Positions 45,427 to 46,181 of a DNA stretch of 64,000 bases are shown piece after piece. The number at the start of each line of letters is the position of its first letter. Position 1 is the first letter of the stretch. Both the position numbers and the translations under genes were made by a program. This DNA is from Escherichia phage vB_EcoM_ACG-C40. The notes below the pieces were generated by a model. That model was given only the letters and a program-made list of their open reading frames with translations. It did not search any database and was not told where the DNA came from. The stretch is from sequence record NC_019399.1; one strand, 5' to 3'.

Positions 45427-45975
45427 ACCCAAGAAAACATCTACTGATCGTTGATACCACTGCAAATCCAAATAGCCATTACGCACATTAAACTGATAGA
45501 ACATATGACAAGGCGGTAATGCCATCTGCTTGAGTTCAGCTGGATTCCATGCTGAAACAATTTGACGCCTATCATTTGGCAGTTTTTTAATACGATCAAT
45601 AACTTCTATAATTTGGTCTACACCACCAAAATCACGCCACTGTTTTCCATAAATTGGACCAAGTTCACCGCTATGGTATCCTAAATCTTTTGCTTGATTT
45701 TCGTAATTTTCATCCCAAACTGTTTTGCCTTGGATTAACGAATCATGTTGAATTAATCGCAAATCATTGACATTTGTGCTTCCCGATAAAAACCAAAGCA
45801 GCTCAGCAATGCAAGCTTTCCAGGCGAGCTTCTTAGTTGTTACTGCAGGAAAACCTTTAGTTAAATCCCAGCGTAATTTAGTACCGAACAAAGCAATTGT
45901 TCCTGTGCCTGTTCGGTCATCGGTTTCGTAGCCATTTTCCAGGATATCTTTAATTAAAAATTGGTATTGTTTCAT
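45427..45975 (-). CDS. td: Thymidylate synthase, exon 1
   Basis: 183 codons from [25 protein letters not shown] to ...SVDVFLG, then intron. Confidence 0.9.
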
Positions 45976-46181
45976 TAGTTCATCCAAGAATATGTAGAAG
46001 GATATTTGGCAAAGTTAGGCTTATATCCTAATTTAACCATTTGTTTTGCTTTGTGAGTAAATCCTAAAGAACGCTCACCTTTAAGATATTGTTTTGGTGT
46101 CATAGGCCCTTGATGCATCTGCCGACAAATAAAAAGGGCCATAGCATTAGGAACATCCTTAACTTTTAATTTATTGCTCAT
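45975..46181 (-). CDS. Hypothetical basic 68-aa protein between frd and td
   Basis: [27 protein letters not shown]...; its stop overlaps the td ATG (TAATG) and its end coordinate abuts the frd stop. Confidence 0.5.

Follow-up and report, generated by a model that had tools for sequence, protein, structure and literature searches.

The 68-codon open reading frame that lies between frd and td in Escherichia phage vB_EcoM_ACG-C40, which we call Y, is probably a real, dispensable accessory gene of T4-like phages, encoding a basic protein of 68 amino acids with three predicted helices and housed in a variable frd|td slot that takes two cassettes. Judged by sequence comparison, Y is a real gene under purifying selection that has been conserved across Straboviridae genera. 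It is already on record, annotated as a hypothetical protein, and belongs to a small family confined to phages; in that sense it is ordinary rather than new. About a quarter of T4 relatives carry it, and the textbook T4 arrangement, in which frd and td overlap directly, is the rarest junction allele among sequenced relatives (32 records, versus 131 and 363 for the other two). The DNA analysed, referred to below as the window, is a stretch of 64,000 nucleotides from sequence record NC_019399.1; the features discussed are collected in Table 1.

Table 1. Features of the frd|td locus in the window and in related phages. Coordinates are window positions unless a locus (L number) is named.
Feature	Coordinates	Strand	Description	Basis or number of records
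ORF Y	45975..46181	minus	68 codons (68 aa plus stop)	ORF list and sequence
frd/Y overlap	46178..46181	minus	ATGA; frd TGA 46180-46178, Y ATG 46181-46179	sequence
Y/td overlap	45973..45977	minus	TAATG; Y TAA 45977-45975, td ATG 45975-45973	sequence
Extra segment	45972..46177	minus	206 bp without counterpart in T4	alignment with T4 junction and blastn
frd	46178..46759	minus	dihydrofolate reductase, 193 aa; translation MIKLVFAYS...	95.5% identical to T4 frd
td exon 1	45427..45975	minus	183 codons; translation ends ...VDVFLG	96.6% identical to T4
I-TevI	44558..45295	minus	homing endonuclease ORF in td intron	ORF list
segG homologue	49799..49167		about 3 kb from Y	
ORF X	L007 1700..2047		phage AndreasVesalius, T2-type allele	
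X-like ORFs preceding Y, other genera	L003 2101..2496; L004 (Entb_45) 2145..2504; L005 2124..2504			
Y-type junction			206-bp insert with Y	131 records
X-type junction			416-bp insert with the 115-aa ORF X, as in T2	363 records
T4-type junction			direct ATGA overlap, empty	32 records, about half of them T4 itself or laboratory derivatives

In the window, frd, Y, the first exon of td and the td intron follow one another in that order on the minus strand. A preliminary description, made from the sequence alone, had placed a 68-codon ORF between frd and td and had called it coupled to both neighbours, and on both counts it was right: the stop/start overlaps by which translational coupling is recognised lie on either side of Y, as ATGA with frd and, exactly as had been described, as TAATG with td. 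The contact with frd had been given as the end of the ORF abutting the frd stop. The contact is real, but it is the start of Y that makes it, in an overlap of 4 nt. The product is basic, as had also been claimed (pI 10.1; 12 lysines and arginines against 2 aspartates and glutamates), and a pI of about 10 is common to all Y homologues. At the composition of the window (36% G+C), a given start would be followed by 68 codons without a stop with a probability of about 0.008, and each of the other five frames across Y contains 3-10 stops. Together with a frame that stays open and under purifying selection in distant homologues, these figures indicate that Y goes beyond what chance would produce. 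Neither a promoter-like nor a strong terminator-like site was found between frd and td.

The gene that precedes Y is annotated as frd in near-identical phages. Two phages, D5505 and JK08, are 99.8-100% identical to the window over positions 44558-46181 (D5505 is 100% identical), and in them the ORF that lies about 0.7 kb downstream of Y is annotated as I-TevI or as a group I intron endonuclease. The td group I intron follows exon 1 and was recognised by its 5' end, TAATTGAGGCC, and by the 96.6% identity to T4. An Rfam scan by E-value of window positions 44000..45430 did not report this intron, presumably an effect of the I-TevI ORF, which interrupts the core of the intron.

The window differs from T4 at other places as well. 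A second ORF absent from T4, of 81 amino acids and belonging to PHROG 3183 (46759..47004, minus strand), separates frd.1 from frd and shares a TAATG with frd, its TAA running into the frd ATG; the extra DNA relative to T4 (46776..46981) again amounts to about 206 bp, and, like Y, the ORF forms a coupled cassette. Further along, nrdB is intronless and lacks I-TevIII (40549/40552 and 41225..41281), and nrdB.1 and mobE are missing, with a 72%-identical mobE-like stretch at 15124..15310.

In T4 itself (NC_000866), the direct ATGA overlap of frd (145109..145690) with td, which ends at 145112, leaves nothing between the two genes, as the preliminary description had stated. It had also named the presence of the same ORF in the T4 reference annotation as a finding that would speak against it; the ORF is missing from that annotation. 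Aligned with T4, the window is nearly identical through the ATGA and then carries 206 extra bases, after which the T4 sequence resumes at ...AATGAAACAATACC; the blastn blocks shared by the two genomes end at 45976 and begin at 46178. Over the 80 nt upstream of Y, the window nearly matches the sequence ahead of td in T4, so that the initiation region of Y is the one from which T4 initiates td, and the 3' end of Y provides td with a new stop/start overlap. The ORF had been described as inserted. Relative to T4 the word is apt; in a wider setting it is not, as the ORF-td pair is kept in at least five other Straboviridae lineages.

A comparison of the frd-td junction across T4-like phages, which had been proposed as a check, revealed three alleles in the coliphages, occupied by Y, by an unrelated ORF that we call X, or by nothing. 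The Y-type count comprises the records covering at least 80% of an 801-bp query around Y, the best 40 of which are 97.8-99.8% identical to it, and a 44-nt probe with the T4 junction at its centre gave the T4-type count. A few Tequatrovirus records contain inserts of other lengths (about 378 bp in Shf125875, about 386 bp in REP1 and Ge15), and in Nami the frd side of the junction alone matches; insert lengths outside the three main alleles imply that further junction variants exist. Because its arrangement is the rarest of the alleles, T4 is a poor reference for the frd|td locus.

The alternative occupant, X, is found in T2, in RB51 (as 'RB32ORF229c') and in Bas42 (Bas42_0068, labelled 'putative homing endonuclease'). 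That label is unsupported, since Pfam and PADLOC scans of X gave no nuclease or other match. In Tequatrovirus, X has a TAAATGAAA repeat at its edges and is set off by flanking spacers of 19 and 45 nt, the 45-nt spacer ahead of td containing a TATAAT-like sequence. The ORF ahead of Y in other genera is a homologue of X: all of these proteins fall in PHROG 1928, and BLASTP of X against the Serratia 4S copy gives an E-value of 1e-10.

By tblastn, Y is present in 236 phage records. Identity is 90% or more in 133 of them (95% or more in 132), all Tequatrovirus and Dhakavirus, and 60-90% in about 30 records of Klebsiella, Enterobacter and Serratia Straboviridae; the remaining 72, below 60%, are Phapecoctavirus-type phages. 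Y lies immediately 5' of td in all the Straboviridae loci opened, 6-7 of them outside the genus of the window (Klebsiella phage Biddle_MM4, Kanagawavirus Entb_45, Serratia phage 4S, Dhakavirus JS98 and two metagenomic contigs), and all Y-td junctions examined in other genera overlap, either as TAATG or as GTGA. The gene order in the non-coliphage genera is frd, none or one ORF, an X-like ORF of 118-126 aa, Y, td, DUF4326 (or small ORFs) and nrdA. In Enterobacter phage Entb_45, frd is annotated as two incomplete pseudogene pieces (L004 1330..1844), while X, Y and td are intact. The Phapecoctavirus-type homologues, which are 42-46% identical and also belong to PHROG 9550, are surrounded by small, unrelated ORFs, and td is not in the vicinity.

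Evidence that Y is a gene comes first from the pattern of its substitutions. For unsaturated pairs, dN/dS (Nei-Gojobori) ranges from 0.067 to 0.18; the lowest values are those of Entb_45 (0.067) and Serratia 4S (0.073), each compared with a metagenomic contig, and the window compared with the Klebsiella- and Kanagawavirus-type copies gives 0.15-0.18. In codons 1-26, which some annotators drop, non-synonymous changes do not outnumber synonymous ones in any pair, and the two cross-phage pairs that have diverged least show 6 synonymous changes to 1 non-synonymous. The frame is 68-77 codons long in every homologue and is the only one open in all of them. Across Straboviridae genera, and within the same genomes, amino-acid identity is 59-81% for Y, 39-48% for Frd and 79-85% for Td, so that Y is conserved more than Frd. 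The dN/dS values, the synonymous excess at the N-terminus, the constant length and the conservation across genera all argue that Y is a real gene.

The family to which Y belongs is well delimited. Y matches PHROG 9550 with E=3.7e-45, its residues 1-68 aligning with positions 1-68 of the 68-position profile, and a Phapecoctavirus homologue matches it with E=4.8e-39. Y is 100% identical to hypothetical protein D5505_00240 (QBO61241.1) of Escherichia phage D5505; the UniRef entry A0A449C5N9 (17 Tevenvirinae) is a PHROG 9550 example, and members of this PHROG lie between frd and td in more than 100 Tequatrovirus and Dhakavirus records. Most of the 131 Y-type records annotate a 'hypothetical protein' at this position. 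The preliminary description had seen no recognisable motif, and wider searches agree: the window copy has no Pfam match at E<=1, neither Y nor any of the 23 family members could be placed in a family by Pfam, NCBIfam or PADLOC, and an HMM search of PDB sequences gave noise only (E>=0.66). Chance-level matches of one or two members each were to DUF7838, LCAT and Cation_ATPase_N (E 0.004 or worse). When 1.84 billion representative proteins were searched with the HMM, 11 clusters at 50% identity were recovered and no annotated relative; ten of them contain basic proteins between 70 and 96 aa long, and the other is P0029, a protein of 1402 aa whose repeats appear to have matched by chance. No paralogue was found in the window, where a family-HMM search of the six-frame translation recovered Y itself alone. 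Our literature search found no paper describing Y or the frd-td junction variants, and no Ribo-seq or proteomics data set for a phage that carries Y.

Annotation of Y varies between records. Y is unannotated in the JS98 RefSeq record (NC_010105, L013 2501..2707) and in Paracelsus (MZ501096), and in IME339 and Klebsiella phage EI (proteins P0018 and P0022) it is called as 42 aa with its start at Met27. The DUF4858 label attached to the protein in phage Shinka (QXV73235.1) appears unfounded; none of the 23 family members matches that model at E<=10. In practical terms, reference annotations thus miss Y, shorten it or add an unsupported label. The 68-aa protein has also been deposited under Escherichia coli and Bacillus cereus assemblies, in contigs of about 167-171 kb that are almost certainly T4-like phage genomes.

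AlphaFold2, given a 23-sequence alignment, produced a moderate model of Y (pLDDT 74, pTM 0.48). Helices are predicted at residues 13-24, 29-39 and 43-50, with the invariant Gly40 in a three-residue turn between helices 2 and 3. The N-terminus is extended and highly conserved (NKLKVKDVP), and in the model a conserved aromatic tail, LGYKPxYxxYxSxYSW, packs back onto this N-terminal strand. A second, independent AlphaFold2 run on a 46%-identical homologue gave the same three-helix topology with pLDDT 67. Foldseek of the model against the PDB found no structural relative (best E=4.7), and comparison with BFVD recovered the protein's own family alone, in which a 79%-identical homologue superposes at a TM score of only 0.58. 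The three predicted helices and the tight turn between helices 2 and 3 might suggest an HTH-like layout, at a pLDDT of only 67-74; neither sequence-profile nor structural similarity of Y to a known HTH domain was significant, and hhalign detected no relation to lambda Cro. The only cysteine of Y and the histidine of helix 1 are not conserved in distant homologues, which makes a metal site unlikely.

Comparison with Dhakavirus JS98 bears on the recent history of the cassette. In 60-nt bins, frd and td of the window are mostly 56-83% identical to those of JS98, whereas identity rises to 95-98% across Y and roughly the first 60 nt of td; the two copies of Y differ at 4 of 207 nt. A cassette at 98% identity between flanks at 56-83% indicates a recent exchange of Y between Dhakavirus and Tequatrovirus, with a discrete patch swapped at the same position. 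Its near-identity to the JS98 copy reflects recency and not constraint, since dS between Y and the Klebsiella copy is 0.88. The T4 form of the frd|td junction probably arose by deletion, as suggested by the presence of the ORF-td pair in at least five other lineages, by the occurrence of X and Y together elsewhere and by the fact that only 32 records share its empty junction. This polarity is argued from distribution alone, and the 98% identity to JS98 shows that gain is possible too.

These features allow several readings of what Y does. Our tentative suggestion is that Y could have a regulatory or adaptor role rather than an enzymatic one, as a small protein that would bind nucleic acid or an acidic partner through the basic helix 2, glycine turn and helix 3 of the model together with the aromatic tail. 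The position of Y next to td invites another reading, in which Y would serve specifically thymidylate synthase, or the T4-type complex for dNTP synthesis, as a partner or modulator, made in a coupled, fixed ratio with Td and binding Td, Frd or their mRNA. In keeping with this, the Y-td overlap is found in 6-7 Straboviridae loci, even where other ORFs separate Y from frd, the conservation of Y exceeds that of Frd, and the segment shared with JS98 takes in the 5' end of td. However, the Phapecoctavirus-type homologues reside in small-ORF clusters away from any td, and T4 and the T2-type phages have a fully functional Td without Y. Stop/start overlaps between neighbours are, moreover, common in T4-like genomes whatever the function, so the coupling to td is no proof of a functional link, and we regard a dedicated Td partner as rather unlikely. 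We are similarly hesitant about a host-takeover or anti-defence factor, retained or lost according to the hosts met. The patchy presence of Y within one genus (131 versus 363 and 32 records), its recent transfer between genera as a discrete unit, its place in early-gene territory, the homologues among small early-type ORFs of an unrelated phage subfamily and the strong purifying selection would all suit such a role. It is, though, what one would guess by default for any small accessory ORF of a phage; neither a function nor a similarity to a known anti-defence or defence-related protein emerged from PADLOC, Pfam or PHROG, and host lists show no host correlation, which makes this reading improbable too. 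Bolder still, and in our view a long shot, is the idea that Y is an important, horizontally spreading modulator, either tied to thymidylate synthesis as a binder of Td, Frd or td mRNA or acting as a counter to host defences directed at nucleotide pools. Were that true, the stop/start overlaps of T4-like phages would quite generally be microhomology 'splice sites' at which small genes are inserted, swapped or deleted scarlessly with translational coupling unbroken, and co-conversion by homing endonucleases nearby would then spread the cassette alleles through populations.

Two further explanations are less likely still. Lying between I-TevI and segG, being small, basic and, in the model, helical, and sharing its slot with an ORF that one record labels 'putative homing endonuclease', Y might be thought a decayed remnant (for example, a DNA-binding domain) of a free-standing homing endonuclease once present at frd|td. 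We consider this very improbable: hhalign of Y against the I-TevI of the window gives a probability of 0.4% and the window contains no similar ORF, neither Y nor X has a GIY-YIG, HNH or NUMOD match in Pfam, no longer, nuclease-fused homologue occurs among the 11 clusters (P0029 has no nuclease domain), and strong purifying selection with constant length across genera is unlike decay. To the notion that the 206 bp are untranslated, a non-coding spacer or an RNA element regulating td, we give almost no credence. The annotations of JS98 and Paracelsus omit Y and others give 42 aa only, as this notion would have it; but dN/dS is 0.07-0.18 and one frame alone is open in all homologues. The RNA fold of the Y segment is no better than that of shuffled sequences (z=0.03) and an Rfam scan of the segment by E-value gave sub-threshold noise only, so that the non-coding reading finds no support there either. 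A role as a small regulatory or adaptor protein is what we would tentatively put forward, and nothing found points to a new kind of system. For a small accessory ORF, Y is conserved to an unusual degree, above Frd; tied to td in Straboviridae and recently moved between genera, it is a reasonable candidate for functional study.

For Y as an accessory gene of the frd|td slot, we postulate the following course of expression and evolution. Y would be transcribed with frd and td within the prereplicative nucleotide-metabolism operon and translated by termination-reinitiation at the frd ATGA, in the region that T4 uses for td. It would in turn pass ribosomes to td at the TAATG, and with ribosomes handed on at that point coupling should stay intact when a cassette is gained or lost. 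The ancestral order may have been frd-(...)-X-Y-td, from which Tequatrovirus lineages would have retained X, or Y, or neither. T4 would have lost both cassettes by recombination between short ATGA-containing junction repeats, which may act as sites of scarless deletion or exchange. T-even homing endonucleases co-convert flanking markers (PMC2988022), and I-TevI and the segG homologue flank the frd-td locus. In mixed infections the Y allele might therefore hitch-hike on gene conversion by I-TevI and SegG, and such hitch-hiking with homing endonucleases is a plausible driver of the spread of Y. Linkage of the td intron and I-TevI to the junction allele is not strict: Y and X each occur with and without the intron, and the T4-type junction occurs with it.

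Set beside known systems, Y is most directly the same gene as the PHROG 9550 protein of D5505, whose family has no assigned function, Pfam model or solved structure. The T4 junction (NC_000866, M12742) resembles that of the window in its flanking genes, its upstream sequence and its stop-over-start coupling; the ATG within the ATGA belongs to td in T4 and to Y in the window, where td begins 206 bp further on at the TAATG. X is like Y in occupying the frd|td slot, in having a TAAATGA-type repeat at its edges and in standing side by side with Y in other genera, but it is unrelated in sequence, is 115 aa long and in Tequatrovirus has spacers instead of overlap coupling; in the Tequatrovirus records seen, X and Y are mutually exclusive. 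The PeSL mobile cassettes of T4-type hyperplastic regions are flanked by an early promoter and a stem-loop. The Y cassette is not of this type: no promoter-like site or hairpin was found at either of its edges, its RNA folds no better than shuffled sequence, and the 206-bp segment is bounded only by a 5-nt direct repeat, AATGA, at 46182..46178 and 45976..45972. Closer in character are the small prereplicative ORFs of T4 (frd.1-frd.3, nrdA.1, nrdA.2 and similar), which are non-essential. Unlike them, Y has no T4 counterpart, and it has no paralogue in the window; in size class, neighbourhood, variable presence and tight packing or overlap with its neighbours, Y is like these ORFs.
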